Positions 1 through 15,559 of a stretch of DNA of 64,000 bases are shown one piece after another. Origin of the DNA: Candidatus Binatia bacterium (GTDB taxonomy: Bacteria > Desulfobacterota > Binatia > HRBIN30); NCBI GenBank assembly GCA_046327925.1, contig JAXLXM010000001.1:462390-526389 (forward strand), written 5' to 3'. The translations under genes were made by a program, and so were the position numbers. Position 1 is the first letter of the stretch. The number at the start of each line of letters is the position of its first letter. The notes beneath the pieces are model-generated. The model ran no database searches. It worked only from the letters and a program-made list of their open reading frames with translations, and was not told the origin of the DNA.

Positions 1-543
1 GTTACCGCTGTGCGGCTGGGCACTGACGACGATCTCGAAGGTGCCGTCCGGATTGACCTGCAGCCGAGTAAGGTCAAGCGCATCGATCGAACGGCCAAGC
101 GACCCTTCACCGGGTGTACCGGCCATGACCTGGAACGCGAGGTACGCAGCGGTCCCACGGGTCCCACTGACGAGATACTCGCCTCGATCGTCGATCTCGG
201 CATTGGCATAGAGGTTATCTGGGTTGTCCAAGCCCCACTTGGTGAAGGTGTCCTGGGTACGACTGAACGACGGATGGTCAACGTCCGAGTTTGCCAGTTT
301 GCGCTCGAGCGCCCAGCGGACCAGACCGGCGAGGTACCGGTAACCCTCGGCACGGTCTTGCTCGGAGAGGTTCGGGACCTGCCTCACCAACGCCTCCGCT
401 TCCGCCACCGATGACGTGAAGCGTTCCATCGCCGAATGCAACGCGCCGTCCGGATCTCCCGAAACGGGTGCGTTGCGGCATGCGGCCAACGCCAGCACTG
501 CGGCGGTGCAGACCGCCGTGCGTTGCGCCACCAGCCGGCGCAT
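1..543 (-). CDS. DUF1214-like exported lipoprotein, 5' part only (gene runs off the left edge)
   Basis: Not in ORF track (no stop in window). Manual minus-strand translation from ATG 543..541 gives MRRLVAQRTAVCTAAVLALAACRNAP (lipobox LAAC) ... FTKWGLDNPDNLYANAEIDDRGEYLVSGTRG ... LQVNPDGTFEIVVSAQPHSGN, open to base 1. AGGGAGCGGGG purine run lies just upstream of the ATG. Paralog of 3855..5177. Confidence 0.6.
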   Translation of the reverse strand, partial: MRRLVAQRTAVCTAAVLALAACRNAPVSGDPDGALHSAMERFTSSVAEAEALVRQVPNLSEQDRAEGYRYLAGLVRWALERKLANSDVDHPSFSRTQDTFTKWGLDNPDNLYANAEIDDRGEYLVSGTRGTAAYLAFQVMAGTPGEGSLGRSIDALDLTRLQVNPDGTFEIVVSAQPHSGN

Positions 544-658
544 CACCCCGCTCCCTGTACCCGGGTCGGCGTCGTTGACATTCGCGGTGGATCCTTGTCG
601 TGATGTCCCAAACGCGCGTGCGGTACCGATCGTGACACCCGTAATCGAGCGGTCAAGC

Positions 659-682
659 GGAAGGCGCCACGGGCCGCCTTCC
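659..682 (-). terminator. GC-rich hairpin 4 nt downstream of the TBDR-OmpA stop (candidate terminator or 3' stabiliser)
   Basis: GGAAGGCG-N8-CGCCTTCC, perfect 8-bp stem. No U-tract follows on the minus strand, so intrinsic-terminator status is uncertain. Confidence 0.3.
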
Positions 683-686
683 ACCG

Positions 687-3548
687 CTACTTGACGTGAA
701 GTTCCACCCTGCGGTTCTGTGCCCGCCCGCCCGCGGTGTCATTCGACGCCACCGGCTTCGATTCGCCCAGCCCTTCCGCCGTGATGCGCCCGGACGCCAC
801 ACCGTGCTCCACGAGGTAGCGACGGACGGTCTCGGCACGCCGCCGGGACAGGCGCAGGTTGTACTGCTCGGTGCCGACGCTGTCGGTGTGACCTTCGACG
901 ACAATGTCCACGCTCCCTTCCTGTTTCAGGACCTGGACCGCCTCATCGAGGATCGGCTTCGCCTCCGCTTTCAGGGTGGCCTTGTCGAAGTCAAAGTGGA
1001 CGCTGCGCAGCACGATCTTCTTTTTCGGCGCCGTTGGCGGTGCTGGCGCCTGGGCGACCGGTGCCGGCGGGGGCGCGATGGGCTCGGCGCCAGCCGTGAG
1101 GTTGTACGCTAGCTGCAGGCCGAAGGTGCGCGGTGCGCCATAGAAATTGGTCGACCAGCCGATCGTCTGCCCGAAGTCGACGCCTGCGATGCGATATTTC
1201 TTATCGAACAGGTTACGGCCAAACACCGAGAGGTCGAGGCTGCCCATCTGCAATGGGATGTCCACAAACTGCAGGCGCCCGGAGACCACGGCATAATTGG
1301 GGGCCTTCATCGCCTGGGCTCCGGGAGTACGGTCGTTCGCCAAGAACGTTTGCTGATCCTGCCAGAACACGTTCAGGTGCGCCGAGAAGGTTCCGCTACC
1401 CGTCGGCGGAGCTGTATAGCCAAGATCGAGACCGGCCTGGTGTTGTGGCGTGAACGCGAAAGAGCGCTGGTCGGCGACATTTTCCAGAACCGGGTTGCCG
1501 TCCGGACCGAAGATCGGCTGATTATTGGCGTCGAATTTTTGATCGAACCACTCCAGGAACTTCGGCAGTGTCGCCCCATAGGTTGCAGTCACCTCGACGC
1601 CGCGGATTGGGACCGCCGTCACCTCCACCTCGGTGCCCCAAACCTCCGCCGAATCGACATTGGAGAGGAGGCTGAGCACCCCTCCGGTCGAACTGGCGCG
1701 AAAGATGCTCTGCTGCAAATCCTTGTAGTCGCTGTAATAGCCCGCGGCATTGACGCGCAGGCGATTGTCGAGCCACTGCGACTTGAAGCCCAGTTCGTAC
1801 TGCAGCAGTCTTTCTGGATCGAATGGGATGGCAAACGCACGTGGATCGTTGCTGGTCCCGTTGAACCCACCGCCCTTGTAGCCGCGGGCGACGCGGAAGT
1901 AGGCCATCAACTCGTCGGTAGCCTGGAAGGCAATGTTCGCCATGGGTGAAAGGCCTGGAGCCCCCGCGCCGTGAATCCCGAAGGCCGTGCCCCGCGAAGA
2001 CGTCCAGTTTTTTAGCGCGGGCGACGGGATGGCCGCGTTGTTGCAGAAATTGATGCCACCGGGACCGGTCACTCGGACGCAATTGAAGGTCTTGTCCATA
2101 TGGACTTGGTCGTGCGTATAGCGGATGCCGGCCGTCACACTGAGCCGGTCGCGGAGGATCGGCGGGGTCACGGTAAACTGACCGAATGCCGCCAGGGACT
2201 CCGTCTCGACGGCAACGTCGTATGGCAGCACCGTAGCGCGGTTCATGAATGACTGGCCTTGGAACATATCCGAGTGCTCGCCGTAATAGTACCCACCGAG
2301 GACGTAGTGCACCCGCGGCGCAGTGCCGACCACTTGCAGCTCTTCGCTCCAATGCTTGATGTTGTTGTCCGATCCGAACTCCGCCCCATGCAGCGGGCTG
2401 CCGTCGATATCCTGACGGATATCTTGGAAGAGGCTACGATACGCGGAGATGGACTTGACCGTCACTTGACCGAGCGGTCCCACTTGGCCGAGATCGTACG
2501 CGCCGGTCAGGATATGCATGCGGTGGTTGCCGTCGTCGTAGAGCCGGGAGCAGTTCGTCGGGTCTTTCGCATCGACGCAGCTCACGTTGTTGCCCCATGA
2601 ATCCACCCGGTTCTTGCGGAGGTACGGCGTCAAATCGAACGGGCGGCCCGCCGAGGCCGGCGAGTTCGGATAGATGAATGTGAGTTGGTACGACCATGGG
2701 AAAGTACGAATCCGATGGTACTCGAACGCATAGTCGATCGTGAGGGGTTGGATCGGCTGCCAGCGCAGGGAGGTCATGGTGAAGATCCGGTTCAGGTTGG
2801 CAAAGCCGGCGCTGCCACTGGACGGGACGCTCGTCGGGGAGCTGTTCGTGAAGTAGCCGTCGTGGTGCTTATACATGACGGTCTGGCGCAGGCTGAGCGT
2901 CCCCAAGGCGTCGGACTGCCAGAAGCCATTCTTGCCGATCAGCGGTACGTTGGCGGTGACGCGGCTGCGGAACGTGTTGTAGTTCCCCACCTCCGTCTGC
3001 AACGTCACGGTGCGCTCCTCGGTCGGCTTCTTGGTGATGAAGTTGATTGCGCCGCCGATGGTATTGCGACCGTACAAGGTGCCCTGCGGCCCGCGCAAGA
3101 CCTCGACGTGATCGAGATCTTCCAAATCCAGGTTGGTGCCCTGCAGTTTCGGGATATAGACGCCGTCCACGTACAGTCCGGCCGCGGGTTCGAATGAAAG
3201 ATTCGGGTTGGCGGTGGCGATGCCGCGGATGCCGACGACGGTGGCTGACGCGCTCCCGCCGCCGATCGTGATGCGCACGTTCGGCGCCGTCTCACCGATA
3301 TCCGTAACGCTTTTCACACCGCGCGCGGCCAGATTTTCGCTGGTGAGCGCGGTGACGGAGATCGGCACCTCCTGAATGCTCTCCTCGCGCTTCTGCGCCA
3401 CCACGGTGATCGATTCGATTTCCGTTTCCAGCTTCGGCGCGGCCTTCCCCTTCGCCGCCTGCGCCCAGCCCGTTCCCGGCACGGCCCACGCAATACCGGC
3501 GATGAGACCGATGCCGAGCCACCCCGCGATTTTCATTCCTCTTGTCAT
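687..3548 (-). CDS. TonB-dependent receptor with C-terminal OmpA-like peptidoglycan-binding domain
   Basis: ORF 687..3626 trimmed to ATG 3548 (MTRGMKIAGWLGIGLIAGIAWAVPGTGWAQA signal peptide, G-run RBS). Plug region ETEIESITVVAQKREESIQEVP, motif VEVLRGPQGTLYGRNTIGGAINF, last barrel strand RTFGLQLAYNL. This is followed by the Pro-rich linker APPPAPVAQAPAPPTAPKKK and the OmpA_C motif GHTDSVGTEQYNLRLSRRRAETV...NRRVELHVK. Confidence 0.9.
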   Translation of the reverse strand: MTRGMKIAGWLGIGLIAGIAWAVPGTGWAQAAKGKAAPKLETEIESITVVAQKREESIQEVPISVTALTSENLAARGVKSVTDIGETAPNVRITIGGGSASATVVGIRGIATANPNLSFEPAAGLYVDGVYIPKLQGTNLDLEDLDHVEVLRGPQGTLYGRNTIGGAINFITKKPTEERTVTLQTEVGNYNTFRSRVTANVPLIGKNGFWQSDALGTLSLRQTVMYKHHDGYFTNSSPTSVPSSGSAGFANLNRIFTMTSLRWQPIQPLTIDYAFEYHRIRTFPWSYQLTFIYPNSPASAGRPFDLTPYLRKNRVDSWGNNVSCVDAKDPTNCSRLYDDGNHRMHILTGAYDLGQVGPLGQVTVKSISAYRSLFQDIRQDIDGSPLHGAEFGSDNNIKHWSEELQVVGTAPRVHYVLGGYYYGEHSDMFQGQSFMNRATVLPYDVAVETESLAAFGQFTVTPPILRDRLSVTAGIRYTHDQVHMDKTFNCVRVTGPGGINFCNNAAIPSPALKNWTSSRGTAFGIHGAGAPGLSPMANIAFQATDELMAYFRVARGYKGGGFNGTSNDPRAFAIPFDPERLLQYELGFKSQWLDNRLRVNAAGYYSDYKDLQQSIFRASSTGGVLSLLSNVDSAEVWGTEVEVTAVPIRGVEVTATYGATLPKFLEWFDQKFDANNQPIFGPDGNPVLENVADQRSFAFTPQHQAGLDLGYTAPPTGSGTFSAHLNVFWQDQQTFLANDRTPGAQAMKAPNYAVVSGRLQFVDIPLQMGSLDLSVFGRNLFDKKYRIAGVDFGQTIGWSTNFYGAPRTFGLQLAYNLTAGAEPIAPPPAPVAQAPAPPTAPKKKIVLRSVHFDFDKATLKAEAKPILDEAVQVLKQEGSVDIVVEGHTDSVGTEQYNLRLSRRRAETVRRYLVEHGVASGRITAEGLGESKPVASNDTAGGRAQNRRVELHVK

Positions 3549-3684
3549 GATCCCCCCGTTCTCGGTGGCCGTGATTTCCAGCCTCCCGACGCCGATACCG
3601 CCCTCCGCGATCAGCGCACGGCACATTTCAGTTGCGCCGCAGGCTGGCTCGCTCCCGTCCTTTTGCCTTGGGTTGACCCCAGCA

Positions 3685-3854: not shown

Positions 3855-5177
3855 CTACAGGTTAAACCGCCGCTGGACATGGCGCCGTCGTTCCCTGATG
3901 GCCGCGTCACGTTGGGCCGGGGTGATCGTAGGCGTGTCCTTGGGAATCGCCCGTCGCAACCGAGCCAACTTGATTTTCTTGGCAACGGGCATCCGATTTC
4001 GGGGAAGTTGGTCGATTCTCAGGCCATCGTACCGGATGATGATTCCCCCCTGCCTCAGCCCCATCGTGTCCAGCCAGTTTTGGACGCCAGGATCGCGGTG
4101 GGCGATGACGAAGTGGTACGCGCCGTCGCTGCTCAGATACGCTTGATCCAGAGTCAGGCTGGTCTGACGATTGGCGTATTCGAGCGACGCCATCCAGTCA
4201 TCCATCAACTGGATGCCTTGACAGGTCGCCGGCGAGGGCCACATCGTCACCACCAGCGCGTCATCGTCCGCCAGCTCGAAACTGCCTTCGGACATGGGCC
4301 TGCCGGGTCTTCCGCCGTGTGCCGATCGATCGCGTGCCGGTGAAAGCGTGTTCACCGGCTGTGCCTTCACCGTCCGCTCCAGGAAAAAGTTCGGCCACAA
4401 CCGGCACTCCATCTTGAATTCCTCGGCGGCGGCGGCGATACGGCGCGCCACCTCCGCGGTCGTCATGGCGGGCTTGAGTCGGCCCTCGTACCCGACTCGA
4501 TCGATATGCACCTCGCCGGGCAGCTCGTTGCGCCAATCGCAAAAGATCTGGCGAACGAGCACCGATGTGCCGTCAGGAGGATTCTCTAGCCAGTTCCCCC
4601 GTGTCCGCTCCGGGCTCAGCGCGATTTCGAACGTCCCATCGGCATTGAACTGCATCTCCTCCATCGTCAGTACCGATGCCGACCGCCCGGTTCCGGACTT
4701 CCAGGGCGTACCCGCATATACCTGCGCATCGAGGCCCCGCTGGGTGCCTCTGGTACCCCAAATTCGATATTGCTCGCCTCCGCGGAGGTCGGCCATGAGG
4801 TACCGTTGGTATGGACAATCGCCACCCGCGCGAACGTTGAAGTCGACGACACGAAAAAACGGATAATCCGCGTCGCCATTCACTTTTTGCTGAAGCGCCC
4901 ACAACAACATGCGCGACAGGAACGTCATGCCAGCCGCACGGTTGAGGTCGTCGGTGTAGAACGGGTGCCGGCGGATGAAATCGGCGGACTCCGTTATCGC
5001 GGTGGCGAGGTTTTGGGCAGCCCACTGCAGTGCGTCACCGGTCTCCTGGCTCGGTTTCCACGTCGAATCGGACGAGGCGCCAGCCGCTGGCGGGCGCATC
5101 TCCTCTGCCAAGGCCATCCAGGCCCGCGCATTCACGCCGGCCAAGCCGAGAACTGCCATGAAATCGCGGCGCTTCAT
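3855..5177 (-). CDS. Tat-signal DUF1214-like exported protein
   Basis: ORF 3855..5348 trimmed to ATG 5177 (GAGGCAGGA RBS). N-terminus MKRRDFMAVLGLAGVNARAWMALA has a twin-arginine motif. Body motifs FFRVVDFNVRAGGDCPYQRYLMADLRGGEQYRIWGTRGT and FNADGTFEIALS parallel the 1..543 protein. Confidence 0.7.
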   Translation of the reverse strand: MKRRDFMAVLGLAGVNARAWMALAEEMRPPAAGASSDSTWKPSQETGDALQWAAQNLATAITESADFIRRHPFYTDDLNRAAGMTFLSRMLLWALQQKVNGDADYPFFRVVDFNVRAGGDCPYQRYLMADLRGGEQYRIWGTRGTQRGLDAQVYAGTPWKSGTGRSASVLTMEEMQFNADGTFEIALSPERTRGNWLENPPDGTSVLVRQIFCDWRNELPGEVHIDRVGYEGRLKPAMTTAEVARRIAAAAEEFKMECRLWPNFFLERTVKAQPVNTLSPARDRSAHGGRPGRPMSEGSFELADDDALVVTMWPSPATCQGIQLMDDWMASLEYANRQTSLTLDQAYLSSDGAYHFVIAHRDPGVQNWLDTMGLRQGGIIIRYDGLRIDQLPRNRMPVAKKIKLARLRRAIPKDTPTITPAQRDAAIRERRRHVQRRFNL

Positions 5178-5184
5178 TCCTGCC

Positions 5185-5319
5185 TCACGACTCGCTGAGA
5201 TTGTACGTGAGCGGCGAACCAAAGGTGAGTGGCGCCCCGCGGAAGTCGGCCGACCAACCGAACGATTGGCCGAAATCCACGCTACCAACGCGATACTTCT
5301 TGTCGAACAGCAGACGGCC
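5185..5319 (-). pseudogene. Relic of a TonB-dependent receptor (last ~44 codons only)
   Basis: Tail of ORF 5185..5994 reads GRLLFDKKYRVGSVDFGQSFGWSADFRGAPLTFGSPLTYNLSES-stop. It aligns to the C-termini of both intact TBDRs in the window (NLFDKKYRIAGVDFGQTIGW..., NLFDRKYRISGVDFGQALGW...). Upstream residues are not TBDR-like. Confidence 0.75.
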
Positions 5320-5404
5320 AACCAGGGCCGGCAGGGCCCAGATCGCAACGGGTAGAAGACCGCGGCCGCGACCCGCCGTGTTGCTGACGGCTCCCATCAT
5401 CGCC

Positions 5405-7540
5405 TCACCTTTTCTCGGTAGTTCCGCGGTCGGCAACCGCGACGCGCCATCGGGAGTCGCCCGCCGCCGCGCGCGCCACGTAGCGGTCGACATCTTCGCC
5501 CAATAAGAAGCCTTCGTCGCGCAGGGACGCGGCGGCCTGCCGCACCTTGTTGATGTAATCCGCCTTGCCCGCGTAGCGCTCTGCAAGCGAGAGTCGGGGG
5601 TCGCCATCCCTGCTGCGCGTAGCGGCGTCCGCGGCGAATGGCTTGAAGCTGCCGACGACCAGGCAGAGTTCACCTTCCGCATAGCCCTTCCTGCGGACGT
5701 TCCAGCCCAGATAGGTACCGACGGGTGCGGCGATATCCGGTAGCCGAATACCACCAATGTCGTTGCCGTCGGCATCGGTGGTCGGCACCAGTATCTTCCA
5801 GCTCCGGCTATAGTCCGCCTGTGGCGGCACGTTGGTGTAATCGGCCACCTCCACGCCATTGACCACCGGACTGTATGGCATCCCGATGCCGAAGAGATCC
5901 GGGAAACCGACCGCCGCCTGCGATGCCGGATCGGCAAGCGTACCGCCGGCAATCGACGGCCATCGGCTGGGCGGCGGTTGCGTTCTGCCGGCAACCCAAT
6001 CCGTCATGGCGACCAGCGCCGCCCTCAACGGCGCGCCGCGTTGCATCGGGTTTGCCTGATACTGGCACGCTGGCAGTGTGCCGCCTGGGTAATGGGTGCC
6101 GCTCGCGATCATGTAGGCGCGAACGTTCTCGGGGAAGGCGACGTCGCGACCCGCGCCATCGGTGCCGACCAGTGCCGCCCCCGCAGTGCGGAACTCGGCG
6201 GCGGTATCGATATGAAAGAGCCTTGGACAGGTTTGATTCGCCGAACACCTTGCAAGTATCCCATCGCGCTTGCCGGTCACGGGATCGGTGGTCGTGGCGT
6301 ACGTAAAGGGAAACTGGTTGCCATAGACCAGATGTTCTTCGTGCTGTCGGGAAAAGCGTCCCGGCTGCGCCCAGCGGACATTGGTGAAGGTCTGGCGCGC
6401 TCCGGCAACAATCGGAATCATGCCGTCGAATACACGCCGCCCGCTACCGTCCGCGTTGAACCCCTGCCATGTGAAGTCCCGCAAGTAGCGCCCGGATTGC
6501 GAGGCACCGATGGCGATCGCCAGATCGACCGGCGCGCCGGCCAGGGCACAGCGACCGCTCGAACCGTTCACCTCACACGGGGCTTGACTCAAATCGGCCA
6601 GGGGACTGGGATTGCCAGCAGAGTCCTTCTGCTCGTACCGCAGAAAGGAAACCAGGTCGCGTGTTACGGCAAAACCCAGTCCCATCACAATCGGGTCGCG
6701 CGCCCGATACACGAATTCGTAAATGGCGCCGGCATCCATGTCGGCGGGACGATCGAGTTGCACGCTCCGGTCATTCACGTAACGCCAATGATCACGGGCG
6801 ATTTCGCGTTTGACGTCGCGCTGTCGGGCGCGCACAGTCAACGTGGCCTGTGTCTGGTCCAGTGTCGCCGCAGGGTAGACCAGTGAAATTGTTGTCGGGG
6901 TGATCAGGTTATCGAACACCACCTCGGTCTGCGTCATGCCGACGATCGACCGTTTGCCATTCCGGGCAACCGGCAGATGGGCCTTGATGAGCGGCACGTT
7001 GCCGAACATCTCCCGCATCCGCGGATCGGCGCTGGCATCCAGATCGCCCTGCCAGCCGCTAAAGACCACCGTATAGCCTTGGCGCATGAGAAAGCCTTGC
7101 CCGCTCTCCTCCGCCGTCATCAGCTCGCCGGGTCTGGCCACGTCGTTGAGCATCTGCAGCAACACCTTGGTACCGCGATTGGCAACCTCGAACACCAGGA
7201 CGCGGCGCGCCTTGGCCCCGTCAATGGGCCGCAGAATGACCAGGTCCGTTGAGTACGAAACCCAGCCGTTATGGCGCGGCGCCTTGTCGAGATCGACGAT
7301 GCCGGCATTGGCGGGATGTCGGGGATCGATCTTGAGGTACGCAACGGCGTCGATGCGCTCATAGACGCCGATGTTGCCGAAGCTCGCGCCGCCGAAGGCG
7401 GGCTGCCGTTTGACGACCTCGATGCGCTCGACAGCGCCTGCGGCCTTCAGCGGCGCTTCGGCCGCACCTGTTTCTGTCGCGCGGCACAGCGCAAACAACA
7501 CGACCGCGAGCGCCCACCGGGCGTGCTTCCGCGCTTTCAT
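5405..7540 (-). CDS. Secreted alpha/beta-hydrolase-domain-like protein (large, uncharacterised family)
   Basis: ORF 5405..7753 trimmed to ATG 7540 (MKARKHARWALAVVLFALCRATETGAAEA signal peptide). N-terminal signature RIEVVKRQPAFGGASFGNIGVYERIDAVAYLKIDPRHPANAGIVDLDKAPRHNGWVSYSTDLVILRP...VLVFEVANRGTK resembles proteins annotated as alpha/beta hydrolase domain-containing. The family assignment is from memory. Confidence 0.6.
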   Translation of the reverse strand: MKARKHARWALAVVLFALCRATETGAAEAPLKAAGAVERIEVVKRQPAFGGASFGNIGVYERIDAVAYLKIDPRHPANAGIVDLDKAPRHNGWVSYSTDLVILRPIDGAKARRVLVFEVANRGTKVLLQMLNDVARPGELMTAEESGQGFLMRQGYTVVFSGWQGDLDASADPRMREMFGNVPLIKAHLPVARNGKRSIVGMTQTEVVFDNLITPTTISLVYPAATLDQTQATLTVRARQRDVKREIARDHWRYVNDRSVQLDRPADMDAGAIYEFVYRARDPIVMGLGFAVTRDLVSFLRYEQKDSAGNPSPLADLSQAPCEVNGSSGRCALAGAPVDLAIAIGASQSGRYLRDFTWQGFNADGSGRRVFDGMIPIVAGARQTFTNVRWAQPGRFSRQHEEHLVYGNQFPFTYATTTDPVTGKRDGILARCSANQTCPRLFHIDTAAEFRTAGAALVGTDGAGRDVAFPENVRAYMIASGTHYPGGTLPACQYQANPMQRGAPLRAALVAMTDWVAGRTQPPPSRWPSIAGGTLADPASQAAVGFPDLFGIGMPYSPVVNGVEVADYTNVPPQADYSRSWKILVPTTDADGNDIGGIRLPDIAAPVGTYLGWNVRRKGYAEGELCLVVGSFKPFAADAATRSRDGDPRLSLAERYAGKADYINKVRQAAASLRDEGFLLGEDVDRYVARAAAGDSRWRVAVADRGTTEKR

Positions 7541-7902
7541 CTCGCCCTGGCGCCGCACCCGTTGCCCGATGTGCCGGACCCGGCCGTCCGCCGCCGCATC
7601 AATCGGCCCGTCGCCCGCGACACCGGCACGCTGAGCATCGCGACAATCACGTCGACGAGGTCGACGGCCAGCGCCGCGGTCGACAGCACCGGACCGTATG
7701 GCGACTCCAGGTCGCCCTCCTGGTCGGCCATCTTCCGGATCCACAGCATCCACGCGCCGCGCAGGCGCGGTGGGTGCGGATCCGCTCGGGGAGTTCGTGC
7801 AGCACCGCCTGCAAGCGCGCGTTCACCAAACGCGCCCCTTCCTGTGCGTCCAATGAATAGTCGAAAAGAAAATGGCGATACGCCGGATCGGCATGTGCCC
7901 GG

Positions 7903-7931
7903 CTTAAATCAAAGCAATTTACTTCAGTCAA
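7903..7931 (-). promoter_or_regulatory. Candidate sigma-70 promoter facing the hydrolase-like gene
   Basis: Minus strand reads TTGACT (7931..7926), 17 nt, TTTAAG (7908..7903) in an AT-rich island. This would give a long (~360 nt) leader, so confidence is low. Confidence 0.3.
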
Positions 7932-7984
7932 TCGAATTGCTAATGCTCGATCGTCTTTCGCTAATGCGACCAGCGCGCTAATCG
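7913..7984. promoter_or_regulatory. Operator-like repeats in the divergent hydrolase/arylsulfatase control region
   Basis: Inverted repeat AGCAATT (7913..7919) / AATTGCT (7935..7941) brackets the TTGACT box. Three direct GCTAAT repeats follow: GCTAATGC 7939..7946, GCTAATGC 7960..7967, GCTAATCG 7977..7984, the last ~25 nt before the arylsulfatase ATG. Confidence 0.4.
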
Positions 7985-8007
7985 GCACGGAGAGAACGGA
8001 GCAGGTC

Positions 8008-10395
<2,388 letters not shown>

Positions 10396-10523
10396 GGTCC
10401 CGATGTAGCGCTTCGCTGCCTCGAGAAGGTGAACTGTGGTGAAGCAGTCCTTACCCGACAATCCGGAAGTTGGCCGTCACCCTCGGATGCCATGGCCGCG
10501 GCCACTTCCGGACGATGCCCGCG

Positions 10524-12878
10524 TCACAACCCCTTCGGTCGCGTGCCGATGACCTCGGCCGTCTCCAGCGCCGCGATTTCCTCCGCAGACAGTCCGAGGA
10601 GATCGCCGAGAATCTCGTGGTTGTGTTGCCCCAGCGTGGGCGCGGCGCAACGCAGCCAGTGCGCGACGCTCGCAAAGCGGAAGGGGACGGTGGGCAGCGG
10701 ATGTGTGCCGGCCACCGGGTGCGCACACGGCTCGAACAGGCGTCGCGCAACCATCTGCGTCTGGCGGCTGCTCATCCGCGGATCGATTGGAACCGCGGCT
10801 GGAACGCCGGCACGGATCAACCGCTCGACCGCCGCCGCCGCATCCTGGTCCGCGGCCCAACGGCTGAGTGCGGCGTCAATACGGTCGTGATGCGCCCAAC
10901 GACCCGCCAGCGTCTCTAGCGCCACATCGTCCGCCCATGCCGGATGCCCGAGAACATCCTTCAGCAACCCCCACTGCCGATCCGTGGCGATCGAAAGCGC
11001 CAGCCATTGCTCGCTGCCGCGACATGCGTACACCCCTTGCGGCGCAGCAGCGGGGGAGCGGTTTCCCATCCGTTGCAGGAGACGACCGTAGGCGGTGAAC
11101 TCGATGACTTGCTCCGCCGCGACATTGAGGGCGCTCTCCACCATGGGCACCTCGACGTGCTGGCCGACGCCAGTGGCCTCACGCACGCGCAACGCCACCA
11201 GCAGCGCGAAGGCGGCATGCATGCCGGCCAACGGATCGCACGGACCGCGCGGCACCAGCGGCGCCTCGTCCGGCCAGCCGTTGACCCACGCCAGGCCGGT
11301 CATTTGCTCCATCGTCTGCGCAAAGCCAACGCGATCGCGCCACGGCCCGGTCAGGCCAAACGCCGGCATACGCACCATGATGGCGCGCGGATTGCGCGCG
11401 TGGACGGTCTGCCAACCGAGTTCGAAGTGCTCCAGCACGCGCGGACTGAAATTCTCCACCACGGCGTCGCCCCAGTCGATGAGGCGCTTGAGCAGGGCCC
11501 GGCCCGCGGGATCGCTCAGATTGAGCGTCACACCCCGTTTGTTGGCGTTCGCGGCGAGGAAAACCTGACTGTACTCCCACCACCGCTCGCGGTCGGTGAT
11601 CCATCCGGCGAAGCGCATGCCGTCGGGATGTTGGATGGATTCGACGTGGATGACATCGGCGCCTAGGGTGGCGAGCAGATGCGCCGCCGACGGTCCCGCC
11701 CACCAACTCGTCATGTCGACAATGCGGACGCCGGCGAGCGGCAGCGTTTGTACCGTGGCGGCGGCGGCAGTCGGACACGCACGCGGCTGGATGCTGCCGC
11801 TATGTTCGCCCAACCGGGGGGCTGGCCGCGACGCGTGTGGGCGCCGGCCATCTATAAGGTAGGGACCGCAGGGATACGTAAACGTGTCGGCTGCGTCGCG
11901 GACGAACACCTGACGGTCCACCAGGTGTTCGTGCCGGCGCACGGTGTCCCCGTTGTCGATCGGCGCCACCGGGATGCGCAACGCCGCCGCGCGCTCGACG
12001 ATCTCGGCGGTGGTATGCCGGGTGGTCCATGCGCGAACGATGGCGGTCCACTCGTCGAATCGCACCTGGCGTCCGGCCGCACTGGCCAACTCGGCATCGT
12101 CGACGAGATCCGGCCGTTCGATGAGCAGCAGGAAATCGCGGAACTGTTGTCCCGAGTTGGTGCAGAAGCCGACCCAGCCGTCGGCCGTCGGCTCCACGGA
12201 TGGGGTTTCGATATTGCGCATCGGCGCAACAATCTCGGGACGGCCGGACACGCTCCAGAAGAGGTCGAGAAACGCCGTAAAGGCGATGTTGGTAGCGTCC
12301 AACAACGACAGATCGATGTGTTCGCCCCGCCCCGTCCGGCGCGCCCGGTAGATCGACGCCAGGGCAGGCGCGGCCGCCGCCGCGCCGCCGACCCATTCGC
12401 TCAGGCGGCCGCCCACCTGCACGGGCAGGCCGCCAAGCCGGCCGCGGCAGGCCAACGCACCGGACTCGGCCTGCAGCGTGAATTCCGTGACCGGGCGCCC
12501 GCTCCACGGACCGCCGCGGCCGAAGGGTGTGACCGACAGCCAAGTGAGCGAAGGGAACCGGCCGCACAGGTCCAAGGCATCGACGACGCCGATGGCCAGA
12601 TCCTCGACTAACAAATCCGCGCCGGCGATCAGATCGAGAAAACGCGCATCCTCCGGTTGGCAGACAACGGAGCGCTTCCCCGCGTTCAGAAATCGGAAGA
12701 GCGCGCCGTCTCGGTCCCCGAGGTCGGCACCAGTCGCCGACCAGCGCCGCAGCGGGTCTCCGGCCGGCGGTTCGACCTTGATGACCTCGGCGCCGGCGTC
12801 GGCGAACAGCTTGCCGCAGTACGGCCCCGGGATCCCGCTGCACAGCTCGATCACCCGCAAGTCATGCAACCAGGGCAT
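10524..12878 (-). CDS. Tandem-domain family III CoA-transferase (two CaiB/BaiF domains in one chain)
   Basis: 784 aa. N-half LRVIELCSGIPGPYCGKLFADAGAEVIKVEPPAGDPLRRW. Second half LAGVRIVDMTSWWAGPSAAHLLATLGADVIHVESIQHPDGMR. Each half also has the ...TG.GQ/E.I/V... segment. Confidence 0.9.
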   Translation of the reverse strand: MPWLHDLRVIELCSGIPGPYCGKLFADAGAEVIKVEPPAGDPLRRWSATGADLGDRDGALFRFLNAGKRSVVCQPEDARFLDLIAGADLLVEDLAIGVVDALDLCGRFPSLTWLSVTPFGRGGPWSGRPVTEFTLQAESGALACRGRLGGLPVQVGGRLSEWVGGAAAAAPALASIYRARRTGRGEHIDLSLLDATNIAFTAFLDLFWSVSGRPEIVAPMRNIETPSVEPTADGWVGFCTNSGQQFRDFLLLIERPDLVDDAELASAAGRQVRFDEWTAIVRAWTTRHTTAEIVERAAALRIPVAPIDNGDTVRRHEHLVDRQVFVRDAADTFTYPCGPYLIDGRRPHASRPAPRLGEHSGSIQPRACPTAAAATVQTLPLAGVRIVDMTSWWAGPSAAHLLATLGADVIHVESIQHPDGMRFAGWITDRERWWEYSQVFLAANANKRGVTLNLSDPAGRALLKRLIDWGDAVVENFSPRVLEHFELGWQTVHARNPRAIMVRMPAFGLTGPWRDRVGFAQTMEQMTGLAWVNGWPDEAPLVPRGPCDPLAGMHAAFALLVALRVREATGVGQHVEVPMVESALNVAAEQVIEFTAYGRLLQRMGNRSPAAAPQGVYACRGSEQWLALSIATDRQWGLLKDVLGHPAWADDVALETLAGRWAHHDRIDAALSRWAADQDAAAAVERLIRAGVPAAVPIDPRMSSRQTQMVARRLFEPCAHPVAGTHPLPTVPFRFASVAHWLRCAAPTLGQHNHEILGDLLGLSAEEIAALETAEVIGTRPKGL

Positions 12879-12917: not shown

Positions 12918-15431
12918 TCAACCCTCCGCGAAGTTATACGTCAACTGCAGTCCGAAGGTGCGCGGGAAGCCGTACGAGTTTTGCGCCCACCCGAGCGCCT
13001 GCCCGAAATCGACGCCGGAGATCCGGTATTTGCGATCGAACAGGTTGCGGCTGAAAACGGCAACGTCGAGACTGCCCTTCTGCAGCGGGATGCCGGCGAA
13101 CTGGATCCGGCCATCGACCACGGCGTAGTTCGGGGCTTTCATCGCTTGGGCGCCACGGGTCTGATCGTTGGGGATGAACGTTTGCTTGTCCTGCCAGAAC
13201 ACGTCGAGCTGCGACGACAACGTTCCGGTGGTGGTGGGCGGTGCCGTATACGAGAGGCTGAGTGCCGCCTGGTGATCCGGGGTAAACGCGAACGCGCGCT
13301 TGCTGGCGACGTTCTCGGTCACCGGCACGCAGGGGGGTGCGGGGGCCGGGCACTGCGGGCCGTTCTCGAAGACGGGTTGATTGCTGGCGTCGAACTTCTG
13401 GTCGTTCCATTCGAGGAACTTGGGCAACGTCAAGCCGTACGTCGCCGTCACCTCGAGGCCACGGAACGGCACCGCCGTCAATTCCAGCTCGCTGCCCCAG
13501 ATCTCCGCCGAATCGACGTTCGAGACGAAGCTGAGCACACCCGCTTGCGGGCTGGCACGGAACACCCCTTGTTGCAGATCCTTGTAATCGCTGTAGTAGC
13601 CGGCGGCATTGAAGCGCAGCCGGTTGTCGAACCACTGCGACTTGAAGCCCAATTCGTACTGCAGCAGCTTCTCCGGCTCGAAAGGAATGGCGAAGGCGCG
13701 CGGATCGGTGGTGGCGCCATTGAAGCCGCCGCTCTTGAAGCCGCGCGCGATGCGGCCGTAGATCATGAGCTCGTCGGTCGCCTGGTAGGTGATGTTCGCC
13801 ATCGGTGAGATCCCCGGCGCGCCAGAGCCATGAATGCCGCCAAAGGCCTTACCGCGTTCCGACCGCCACGTCTGCAACTGCGGGAATGCGCTGGCAGGCA
13901 GGAGTGGATTGTTGCACACGTTCACCGGCCGGCCCCCAATCAGCGAGGTGATCGTGACGCACCGGGAGTAGCGGTCCATATGCACCTGCTCTTGCGAGTA
14001 GCGAATGCCGGCCGTCACGCTGAGTTTGTCGTTGAGGATGGGGGGCGTGACGGTGACCTGACCGAACGGTGCGTACGAATCGGTGCTCACGTTAATGGTG
14101 GAGGGCAGATTCGTCGCCCCCGCCATGAACACTTGAAACTGATCCTGGTCCGCGTGTTCGCCGTAGTAATAGCCCCCGAGCACGTAATGGACGCGGGGTG
14201 CGGTGCCCACCAATTGCAGTTCTTCACTCCACTGCTTGACCGTGTTCACCGATCCAAAGTCGGCGATATGCAGGGGGCTGCCGTCCGAATCCTGCGCCTG
14301 TTGATGGAAGAAGTGGCGATACGACGAGACCGAGCGCACCGTCACATTGCCGAGCATGCCCACCTCGCCGACATCGTAGGTCGCGGTCAGGATGTGCATA
14401 CGATGATTGCCGTCATCCATCCGCCGCGAACATTTCGTAATGTCCGCTAGATTGCAGACGACGTTGTTGCCGATGGCATCCACACGATTCGTCCGCACAT
14501 AGGGCGTCAGATCGAACGGTTTTCCCGGCGAGACCGGCGAACCGGGGTAGATGTAGGTGGCTTGCACCTTGGAGACGCCCTGCCGGTAACGGTGATACTC
14601 GCCGGAATAGTCCACCGTCAGCGGCGCGATCGGCTGCCAGCGCACGGCGGTCATGGTGAACACCCGGCTCAGATCGTCCAACCACTTGCTGCCGGTCGCC
14701 GGGACACTCGTGGGAGAGCGATTGGTGGAATACCCGTCGTGGGACTTGTACATCACGTTCTGCCGCAGGCTGAGAGTTCCAAGCGCCTCGGATTGGAAGA
14801 ATCCGTTCTTGCCGACGATGGGCACGTTCGCGGTGATGCGGCCCTTGAAATAATCGAAATTGCCCACCTCGGTTCGGGCAGTGATGGCACGTTCCTCCGT
14901 GGGCTTCTTGGTGATGAAGTTGATCGCGCCGGCGATGGTGTTGCGGCCGAACAAGGTGCCCTGCGGCCCGCGCAGGACTTCGACCCGCTCGAGGTCCTCG
15001 AGATCCAGGTTCGATCCCTGGATCTTCGAAATATAAGCGCCGTCGACATACATTCCGGCAGCCGTTTGGAACGACATGTTCGGATTGGCCTGTCCGACGC
15101 CGCGGATGGCGATCGACGTTCCCGAATCGCTCCCCGAATTGGTCTGGATGCGCACGTTCGGCGCCATCTGCCCGATGGCCGCCACATCGGTCACGTTGCG
15201 CGCATCCAACGCTTCGCTGGTGAGGGCAGTGACCGAAACCGGAACCTCCTGGATGTTCTCCTCGCGCTTCTGGGCCACCACCGTGATCTCCTCGATCTCG
15301 GTCTCGACTTTCGGCGCGGCGCCCTTTCCCCCTCTGGCCGCTTGCGCCGACGTCGTCGAAGGCACGACAAGCGCGCCAACGACCACCAGGCCAACGGCGG
15401 CACGTATCGAGTTCCTGATTCTCCCCGTCAT
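12918..15431 (-). CDS. TonB-dependent receptor
   Basis: ORF 12918..15506 trimmed to ATG 15431 (MTGRIRNSIRAAVGLVVVGALVVPSTTSAQA signal peptide). Collinear paralog of 687..3548 (ETEIEEITVVAQKREENIQEVP, VEVLRGPQGTLFGRNTIAGAINF) but ends ...FGLQLTYNFAEG-stop with no OmpA tail. Confidence 0.92.
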   Translation of the reverse strand: MTGRIRNSIRAAVGLVVVGALVVPSTTSAQAARGGKGAAPKVETEIEEITVVAQKREENIQEVPVSVTALTSEALDARNVTDVAAIGQMAPNVRIQTNSGSDSGTSIAIRGVGQANPNMSFQTAAGMYVDGAYISKIQGSNLDLEDLERVEVLRGPQGTLFGRNTIAGAINFITKKPTEERAITARTEVGNFDYFKGRITANVPIVGKNGFFQSEALGTLSLRQNVMYKSHDGYSTNRSPTSVPATGSKWLDDLSRVFTMTAVRWQPIAPLTVDYSGEYHRYRQGVSKVQATYIYPGSPVSPGKPFDLTPYVRTNRVDAIGNNVVCNLADITKCSRRMDDGNHRMHILTATYDVGEVGMLGNVTVRSVSSYRHFFHQQAQDSDGSPLHIADFGSVNTVKQWSEELQLVGTAPRVHYVLGGYYYGEHADQDQFQVFMAGATNLPSTINVSTDSYAPFGQVTVTPPILNDKLSVTAGIRYSQEQVHMDRYSRCVTITSLIGGRPVNVCNNPLLPASAFPQLQTWRSERGKAFGGIHGSGAPGISPMANITYQATDELMIYGRIARGFKSGGFNGATTDPRAFAIPFEPEKLLQYELGFKSQWFDNRLRFNAAGYYSDYKDLQQGVFRASPQAGVLSFVSNVDSAEIWGSELELTAVPFRGLEVTATYGLTLPKFLEWNDQKFDASNQPVFENGPQCPAPAPPCVPVTENVASKRAFAFTPDHQAALSLSYTAPPTTTGTLSSQLDVFWQDKQTFIPNDQTRGAQAMKAPNYAVVDGRIQFAGIPLQKGSLDVAVFSRNLFDRKYRISGVDFGQALGWAQNSYGFPRTFGLQLTYNFAEG

Positions 15432-15559
15432 CTCTTCACCCCTTCCCGCGAGCGGCTGCGGCCATCGATCGGTCCACGTCCACCACGCGCTGCGCGGACG
15501 CCGCACGCGAACCGCGGCGCAGCACGCCTGTTGTGCTCTCTTTGAATGGCCTGGCGCCG

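Follow-up and report, generated by a model that had tools for sequence, protein, structure and literature searches.

A TonB-dependent transporter with an OmpA-type, probably wall-binding tail in a Candidatus Binatia bacterium: a modular and recurrent architecture

OmpA of E. coli and OprF of P. aeruginosa are eight-strand porins or anchors built from a barrel with an internal β-signal, a Pro/Ala hinge of about 20 residues and an OmpA_C domain. Classical TonB-dependent transporters (TBDTs), such as FyuA (PDB 4epa), FhuA, FecA, FepA and BtuB, have a signal peptide, a TonB box, a plug and a 22-strand barrel; the textbook TBDT is a free-standing barrel whose transient contact with TonB is its sole link to the rest of the envelope. 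To our knowledge, the chain of known TBDT structures stops with the last strand or no more than a few residues beyond it, and their extra domains are N-terminal, namely a signalling domain, the N-terminal extension of SusC or a carboxypeptidase-like domain. Pal, YiaD, YfiB, MotB, PorE and the CHU_0125 family share a wall-binding domain with the motifs GHTD...LSxRRA...NRRVE, their anchors being a lipid, an inner-membrane helix or a non-transporting barrel. This report concerns a gene of a Candidatus Binatia bacterium that joins these designs; it lies in a stretch of 64,000 nucleotides (the window, C1:462390-526389) of a 5.07 Mb genome in 18 contigs, here termed G000. The encoded protein has the signal peptide, TonB box, plug and barrel of a classical TBDT, but unlike one it carries a 133-aa C-terminal periplasmic extension; it resembles OmpA and OprF in its internal β-signal, hinge and OmpA_C, yet differs in having a plugged 22-strand barrel and a TonB box; and it carries the wall-binding motifs of the Pal group on a different kind of anchor.

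The gene is one uninterrupted open reading frame (ORF) on the minus strand of the window, 979 aa long from the first ATG, without stop or frameshift; its Plug, barrel and OmpA matches all exceed the Pfam gathering thresholds, which bears out the preliminary description of a TonB-dependent receptor with a C-terminal OmpA domain. The true start is likely Met27 (3548) or Met31 (3536), and the alignment of 40 homologues starts near MKIAGW. Its parts are as follows.

687..3626, minus strand: fused TBDT, whole ORF (ORF reading, Pfam)
3456..3548, minus strand: signal peptide, residues ~27-57, ending ...GTGWAQA before A (sequence reading; cleavage site inferred)
3396..3422, minus strand: TonB box, residues 69-77, EIESITVVA (conservation in 40 homologues)
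3048..3377, minus strand: Plug, residues 84-193 (Pfam PF07715, E 3.4e-19; AlphaFold2 confidence ~80-90)
1089..3011, minus strand: 22-strand TonB-dependent barrel, residues ~206-846, final strand PRTFGLQLAYNLTAG (Pfam, AlphaFold2, Foldseek)
1026..1088, minus strand: Pro/Ala linker, residues 847-867, AEPIAPPPAPVAQAPAPPTAP (AlphaFold2 confidence <50; resembles the linker of the resident porin)
690..1025, minus strand: OmpA_C peptidoglycan-binding domain, residues 868-979 (Pfam PF00691, match to the OprF C-domain)
882..884, minus strand: predicted wall-binding Asp915, motif GHTD
837..839, minus strand: predicted wall-binding Arg930, motif LSRRRA
687..689, minus strand: stop codon

The TonB_dep_Rec match (PF00593, E 3.7e-36) covers residues 328-806, and the OmpA match (PF00691, E 1.2e-26) residues 878-972, spanning profile positions 2-98 of 98. 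Around the TonB box, the 40 homologues conserve E71, E72, I73, V75, T76, A77 and Q78, each either without variation or in 90% or more of the sequences. The junction runs from ...PRTFGLQLAYNLTAG through AEPIAPPPAPVAQAPAPPTAP into KKKIVLRSVHFDFDKATL...GHTDSVGTEQYNLRLSRRRAETV...NRRVELHVK and the stop codon; linker and OmpA_C together form a tail of 133 aa (687..1088 with the stop). On re-reading, the tail and the junction sequence quoted earlier match exactly, and the linker is indeed rich in Pro and Ala, its length being 21 residues here instead of the 20 first given. Three points go beyond that first description: the gene is one of 17 such copies in its genome, its tail is an exchanged porin cassette, and the same fusion has independent origins elsewhere.

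Such a frame could in principle be an artefact in which mis-assembly, or a stop codon lost to a sequencing error, joined two adjacent genes, the receptor and a separate OmpA-family gene, and a few members of the family do carry frameshifts between barrel and tail: G000 C15:197401-200252, in which the frame breaks just past the linker (after AKKKI) and OmpA_C continues in another frame, and L192, L182 and L186 of G303, the metagenome-assembled genome (MAG) of a second species of the same genus. Against this, a search with a 189-aa query across the junction finds 17 full-length in-frame fused copies at different loci of G000, with open frames of 955-1064 aa, and at least 16 fused copies in G303; the window gene has a G303 orthologue in a 973-aa frame, with identities of 93% across the junction and 90% in the barrel. 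The protein database contains about 40 full-length homologues that share the fusion and all three Pfam domains, 57-91% identical over the C-terminal 340 residues that served as query; some are paralogues from G000 and others come from separate JGI, ENA, NCBI and Logan assemblies, and where a name is given it is just "TonB-dependent receptor" or "iron complex outermembrane receptor protein". The tail, furthermore, lacks any separate start codon, signal peptide or lipobox. The copies at separate loci and in separate assemblies effectively refute a chimeric join, and an artefact of any sort has next to no probability.

Every fused copy in G000 shares one layout, in which the last strand is followed by about 20 Pro/Ala residues and by AKKKIVLRSVHFDFDKATL...NRRVELHVK and the stop. 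The family in this genome comprises 17 fused, one frameshifted and 16 full-length unfused receptors; it is a lineage-specific expansion of about 35, essentially confined to two species, and about half of it is fused. At C15:187937-200252, outside the window, four fused-type receptors form a tandem array: two are 98% identical, the third shares with them a tail alike at 306 of 306 nt on a barrel of 64% identity, and the fourth is the frameshifted copy. Outside G000 and G303 the fusion was found neither in 60 relatives nor in 300 genomes drawn across the phylum, and the barrel family itself gives 0-2 weak or fragmentary matches each in the three remaining genomes of the genus (G301, G302, G304) and in a sample from its family and order; rooting gain against loss of the tail by tail-less orthologues failed, as G301, G302, G304 and other family members are essentially without these receptors. 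The window itself holds an unfused paralogue and a relic of a third receptor.

12918..15506, minus strand: closest tail-less paralogue in the window, ending ...TYNFAEG and stop; barrel 68% identical to that of the fused gene
5185..5319, minus strand: remnant of a third family receptor of the unfused type, covering its final ~44 codons, ...LFDKKYRVGSVDFGQSFGWSADFRGAPLTFGSPLTYNLSES and stop, ending ...TYNLSES and stop (match at C1:467580-467714)

As the preliminary description stated, the paralogue ends ...FGLQLTYNFAEG and stop; it has no OmpA match, and its start, first placed at 15431, is at 15506. The relic lies directly upstream of the DUF1214-like gene at 3855..5348, and the remainder of that receptor is gone.

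The structure prediction proposed at the outset has been made with AlphaFold2, on an alignment of the 40 fused homologues, and shows a plug, a barrel, a disordered linker and a separate α/β domain, with a mean predicted local distance difference test score (pLDDT) of 81 and a predicted template modelling score of 0.75. Plug and barrel reach a pLDDT of about 90, residues 1-83 stay below 50, and disorder is predicted for the linker (847-870), which is also below 50; the separate domain spans residues 870-979 at pLDDT 58-89, with a β-α-β-α-β-β pattern across 869-978 at moderate confidence. The earlier topological argument, that the last strand ends in the periplasm and leaves room for a further domain, holds and is consistent with this model. 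Foldseek against the PDB returns FyuA (4epa) as the best match (E 8.6e-38; target-normalised TM-score 0.86), and all of the top 50 matches are TBDTs, none of which has an OmpA-type tail by title. The tail sequence is closest in the PDB to the C-terminal domain of OprF from P. aeruginosa (5u1h, E 1.7e-26) and matches 49 OmpA_C chains at E ≤ 1e-10, in agreement with its first reading as a complete OmpA_C module. D915, R930 and the NRRV motif are invariant in 40 of 40 homologues, distant independent fusions included, and the 15-residue spacing of Asp915 and Arg930 is that seen in A. baumannii OmpA; by motif offset, without superposition, we take these two residues to correspond to the diaminopimelate-contacting Asp271 and Arg286 of that protein (3TD5).

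The protein can thus be placed by its parts. It has the plug in the barrel, the 22-strand fold and the TonB box of a TBDT, and its genome encodes TonB (TonB_C, PF03544, three matches over the cut-off and one borderline); it also has the full-length profile match, the Asp/Arg pair and the α/β fold of an OmpA_C domain. By NCBIfam the last ~125 residues group with OmpA, Pal, YiaD and OprF-type wall anchors, and the front part scores with the TonB-dependent siderophore and heme subfamilies, below their cut-offs. The Pro/Ala hinge and OmpA_C of the OmpA/OprF porin family are present, the small eight-strand barrel (OmpA_membrane / OMP_b-brl) is absent; the fused protein therefore resembles OmpA at its C-terminus yet stands outside the OmpA/OprF family, because its N-terminal part is a plugged 22-strand TBDT.

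The tail is the part of the lineage's own OmpA-type porin that lies in the periplasm, joined to the barrel of a transporter, as OmpA-like proteins of this organism and its relatives share the cassette of strand, hinge and OmpA_C. In G000, a 360-aa OmpA-like porin (C13:237108-238190) reads ...GVGMHWSF AEPVAPPPRPAPVAPVPAPLAQSKKEKIVLRGVHFDFNKA... towards its end, the same linker and OmpA_C cassette; its linker, AEPVAPPPRPAPVAPVPAP, is resembled by AEPIAPPPAPVAQAPAPPTAP of the fused gene. OmpA-like proteins of relatives (~330-480 aa) match query residues ~44-188, which span the last β strand, the Pro/Ala hinge and OmpA_C, at 55-70% identity.

Once fused, the tail could have been the functionless passenger of a chance fusion, neutral or decaying, as the frameshifted tails and the orthologues without a tail might suggest. 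Its pattern of change contradicts this. Among the 17 fused copies the mean amino acid identity is 51% for the barrel, 60% for the plug and 90% for OmpA_C; at four-fold synonymous sites the corresponding values are 0.47, 0.50 and 0.57, where ~0.4 is expected from base composition, so that these sites are near saturation and most tails are old and have been kept alike by selection, not by recent copying. Recent copying as the cause of the likeness was rejected for most copies and accepted only for the C15 tandem array and one C11 pair. In four orthologue pairs between G000 and G303, the ratio of nonsynonymous to synonymous divergence (dN/dS) is 0.04-0.13 in the tail, at dS ~0.5, and 0.11-0.19 in plug and barrel. 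The tail is under strong purifying selection, lower in dN/dS than the barrel and with invariant binding residues, and the same design has expanded independently in MAGs of Rhodospirillales (see below); a passenger without function is accordingly a very improbable explanation.

The tail cassette moves between paralogous receptor genes. In a maximum-likelihood tree of plug and barrel from G000, fused and unfused receptors are interleaved, with ten changes of state of which at least eight are forced by well-supported branches, and tail states are no more clustered than shuffled labels; with 19 G303 copies added, the tree has 15 changes, at least 12 of them forced. Relatedness of tails and of barrels is uncorrelated (Spearman -0.03), and a Mantel test (r 0.35, p 0.001) apparently owes its signal to the few C15 pairs that are nearly identical. 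Between C15:191054 and C15:194171 the tail agrees at 306 of 306 nt on barrels that are 64% identical, and the tails of C11:712603 and C11:565225 cluster at 90% nucleotide identity (support 98/95) with barrels in different clades; tails this alike on diverged barrels point to gene conversion. The tree of tail DNA is almost unresolved and star-like, with only two tail clades supported and no order of transfers. Two orthologue pairs, separated by branch lengths of 0.03-0.09, differ in tail state: fused L176 of G303 against unfused C17:83428 of G000, and fused L179 of G303 against unfused C1:138371 of G000.

The first of these pairs preserves a trace of the exchange. Right behind the tail stop of L176 (G303:C295:800-4200) lies a decayed duplicate of the receptor's own 3' end in its unfused form, PGAKAMKGWGYALVNGRLQL...DYFTAS and stop, after which comes the same downstream gene (MRILILGCGSVGG...) as beside the unfused G000 orthologue. 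Either an unfused gene received the cassette by an insertion that duplicated its 3' end, or the G000 gene lost its tail through recombination between repeats; whichever the direction, the relic means that the fused and unfused states are interconvertible. Among 29 fused genes inspected for such unfused-type 3' relics only L176 has one, and the insertion route is thus documented once. The frameshifted or truncated tails (G000 C15:197682; G303 L192, L182 and L186) may be losses in progress or sequencing errors in the MAGs. It is the interleaved tree, the decoupling of tail and barrel, the C15 identity, the differing orthologues and the L176 relic that together establish a mobile tail; its transfer probably proceeds by recombination at the conserved last-strand sequence PRTFGLxLTYNF.

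The same architecture is found in unrelated lineages. Uncultured Rhodospirillales/Alphaproteobacteria MAGs (bog_932, RYN_452, co185_32, SMAG_U9915 and OZ255631) contain fusions whose OmpA tails are of the alphaproteobacterial type (loci L093-L123); bog_932 and RYN_452, the best sampled, have about 10-12 or more such frames each, 900-1008 aa long and all with OmpA motifs, most of them 24-32% identical to the barrel of the window gene. A Lysobacterales fusion (L029, P0072) has a Pro-rich hinge and a thrombospondin-type-3 (TSP3) repeat before OmpA_C, and its tail matches ordinary OmpA-like proteins of ~360-390 aa from that lineage (L027, L033), including one from the cultured Elongatibacter sediminis. 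These fusions are like the one described here in their identical architecture and, for Rhodospirillales, in reaching at least 10-12 copies per genome; they are unlike it in their divergent barrels and in tails of each lineage's own OmpA type. On such sequence grounds, the Rhodospirillales/Alphaproteobacteria and Lysobacterales fusions are separate origins, the former a convergent expansion. The architecture is rare overall but has arisen several times, and two or more unrelated lineages from soil or bog have multiplied it. Metagenome proteins P0043-P0047 and P0069-P0071 (1,000-1,600 aa) are of another kind, with several OmpA-type domains together with OmpA membrane barrels and DUF748 or TolB-like repeats.

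The preferred reading, to which we assign a probability of roughly 0.78, is that the fused protein is a working TonB-dependent importer that is fastened non-covalently to the peptidoglycan by a porin-derived, transferable OmpA_C tail. Both termini of a 22-strand TonB-dependent barrel are periplasmic, and the chain can extend into the periplasm. From the periplasmic C-terminus of the transporter, the flexible Pro/Ala hinge of ~21 residues, OmpA-like in length, would let OmpA_C reach the wall, where Asp915 and Arg930 of the domain would bind a stem peptide of the peptidoglycan without a covalent bond. The β-signal FGLQLAYNL would thereby become internal, as in OmpA; BAM, the β-barrel assembly machinery, tolerates an internal β-signal. 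The conserved TonB box and plug, together with the TonB genes of the organism, make it probable that the fused transporter is still driven by TonB.

Several observations weigh against a wall-fastened importer. The 16 unfused paralogues in G000, and the two orthologue pairs that differ in tail state, imply that some receptors, at least, can do without the tail; the AlphaFold2 confidence for the tail is moderate and the model gives no indication of where it would dock; and, with an ordinary OmpA-like porin and a Pal-like lipoprotein in the same organism, there is no obvious need for further tethers.

It is also conceivable that the tail is functional but serves chiefly for receptor dimerisation, or docks under the barrel to gate the access of TonB. 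OmpA C-domains can dimerise, the flexible linker would let the domain reach the periplasmic face of the barrel, and the tail is conserved above what simple wall binding might need; this role is nevertheless unlikely, as the invariant residues are the classical peptidoglycan-contacting ones, the cassette is common to an ordinary OmpA-like porin, in which there is no plug to be regulated, and the tails of independent fusions are of different local OmpA types, TSP3 repeats included in some, as a generic wall-binding role would lead one to expect and a specific docking surface would not. A further option makes the fused proteins mainly structural tethers, the barrel being a large membrane anchor with transport secondary or lost. 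The very high copy number and the nearly identical tails on diverged barrels would suit it, but it sits poorly with the conserved TonB box and plug motifs, with barrels that are under purifying selection (dN/dS as above) and whose divergence is typical of substrate specialisation, and with fused and unfused copies that are interleaved and in some cases orthologous; its probability is judged to be distinctly lower again.

If the importer is indeed fastened to the wall, abundant receptors would most likely double as tethers between the outer membrane and the wall, kept at a fixed distance from the layer to which the Ton motor is also anchored; recent work assigns peptidoglycan an anchoring role for ExbD in this motor (bioRxiv 10.1101/2023.08.11.552980). 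The gain from such a tether may be better transport, envelope stability, or both. A stronger proposal, and a rather doubtful one, is that fastening alters the performance of the transporter itself: with the barrel fixed relative to a wall-anchored ExbBD-TonB motor, the pulling force would go into the plug and would not be lost to membrane deformation or diffusion, and natural selection could then act on the tail as a transferable "performance module" spreading among receptor genes.

The neighbourhood of the gene in the window holds no partner specific to the fusion; neighbour genes found only beside fused copies were looked for and none was found. Two paralogous exported proteins flank the gene, downstream at 1..684 on the minus strand (a fragment without a Pfam match) and upstream at 3855..5348 on the minus strand (a weak match to DUF1214). 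G000 has 29 genes of this DUF1214-like exported type, some of which adjoin fused and unfused receptors; such a protein was considered as a partner of the fusion and rejected, since it adjoins 5 of 18 fused and 5 of 16 unfused copies. Further along, between the upstream exported protein and the tail-less paralogue, lie three more genes.

5405..7753, minus strand: Abhydrolase_10 protein
8008..10395, plus strand: sulfatase
10524..12878, minus strand: double-domain family III CoA-transferase

The context from 5405 to 12878 is catabolic, not one of iron uptake. The sulfatase, α/β hydrolase, CoA-transferase and DUF1214-like neighbours, together with the size of the receptor family, suggest that the imported substrates are organic nutrients rather than iron.

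The architecture was first taken to be undescribed, which stands in so far as no description of a TBDT with an OmpA_C domain was found in the open-access full-text literature; it is, on the other hand, present in public databases under generic names and uncharacterised as far as the literature was searched. The nearest literature is that on outer-membrane tethering systems (PMC12204202). As a TBDT that carries a wall anchor of the OmpA type, it is a real architecture, kept by selection, modular in build and recurrent. A wall-anchored transporter family of this kind would give a handle on whether attachment to the wall affects transport or the stability of the outer membrane, and on the way in which BAM deals with 22 strands when the β-signal is internal and a folded C-terminal domain follows; the orthologue pairs that differ in their tail are natural controls. 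That the design evolved independently and expanded in two or more uncultured lineages from soil and bog suggests a real benefit, and the receptor family illustrates how a domain cassette spreads through paralogues via recombination at a conserved strand.

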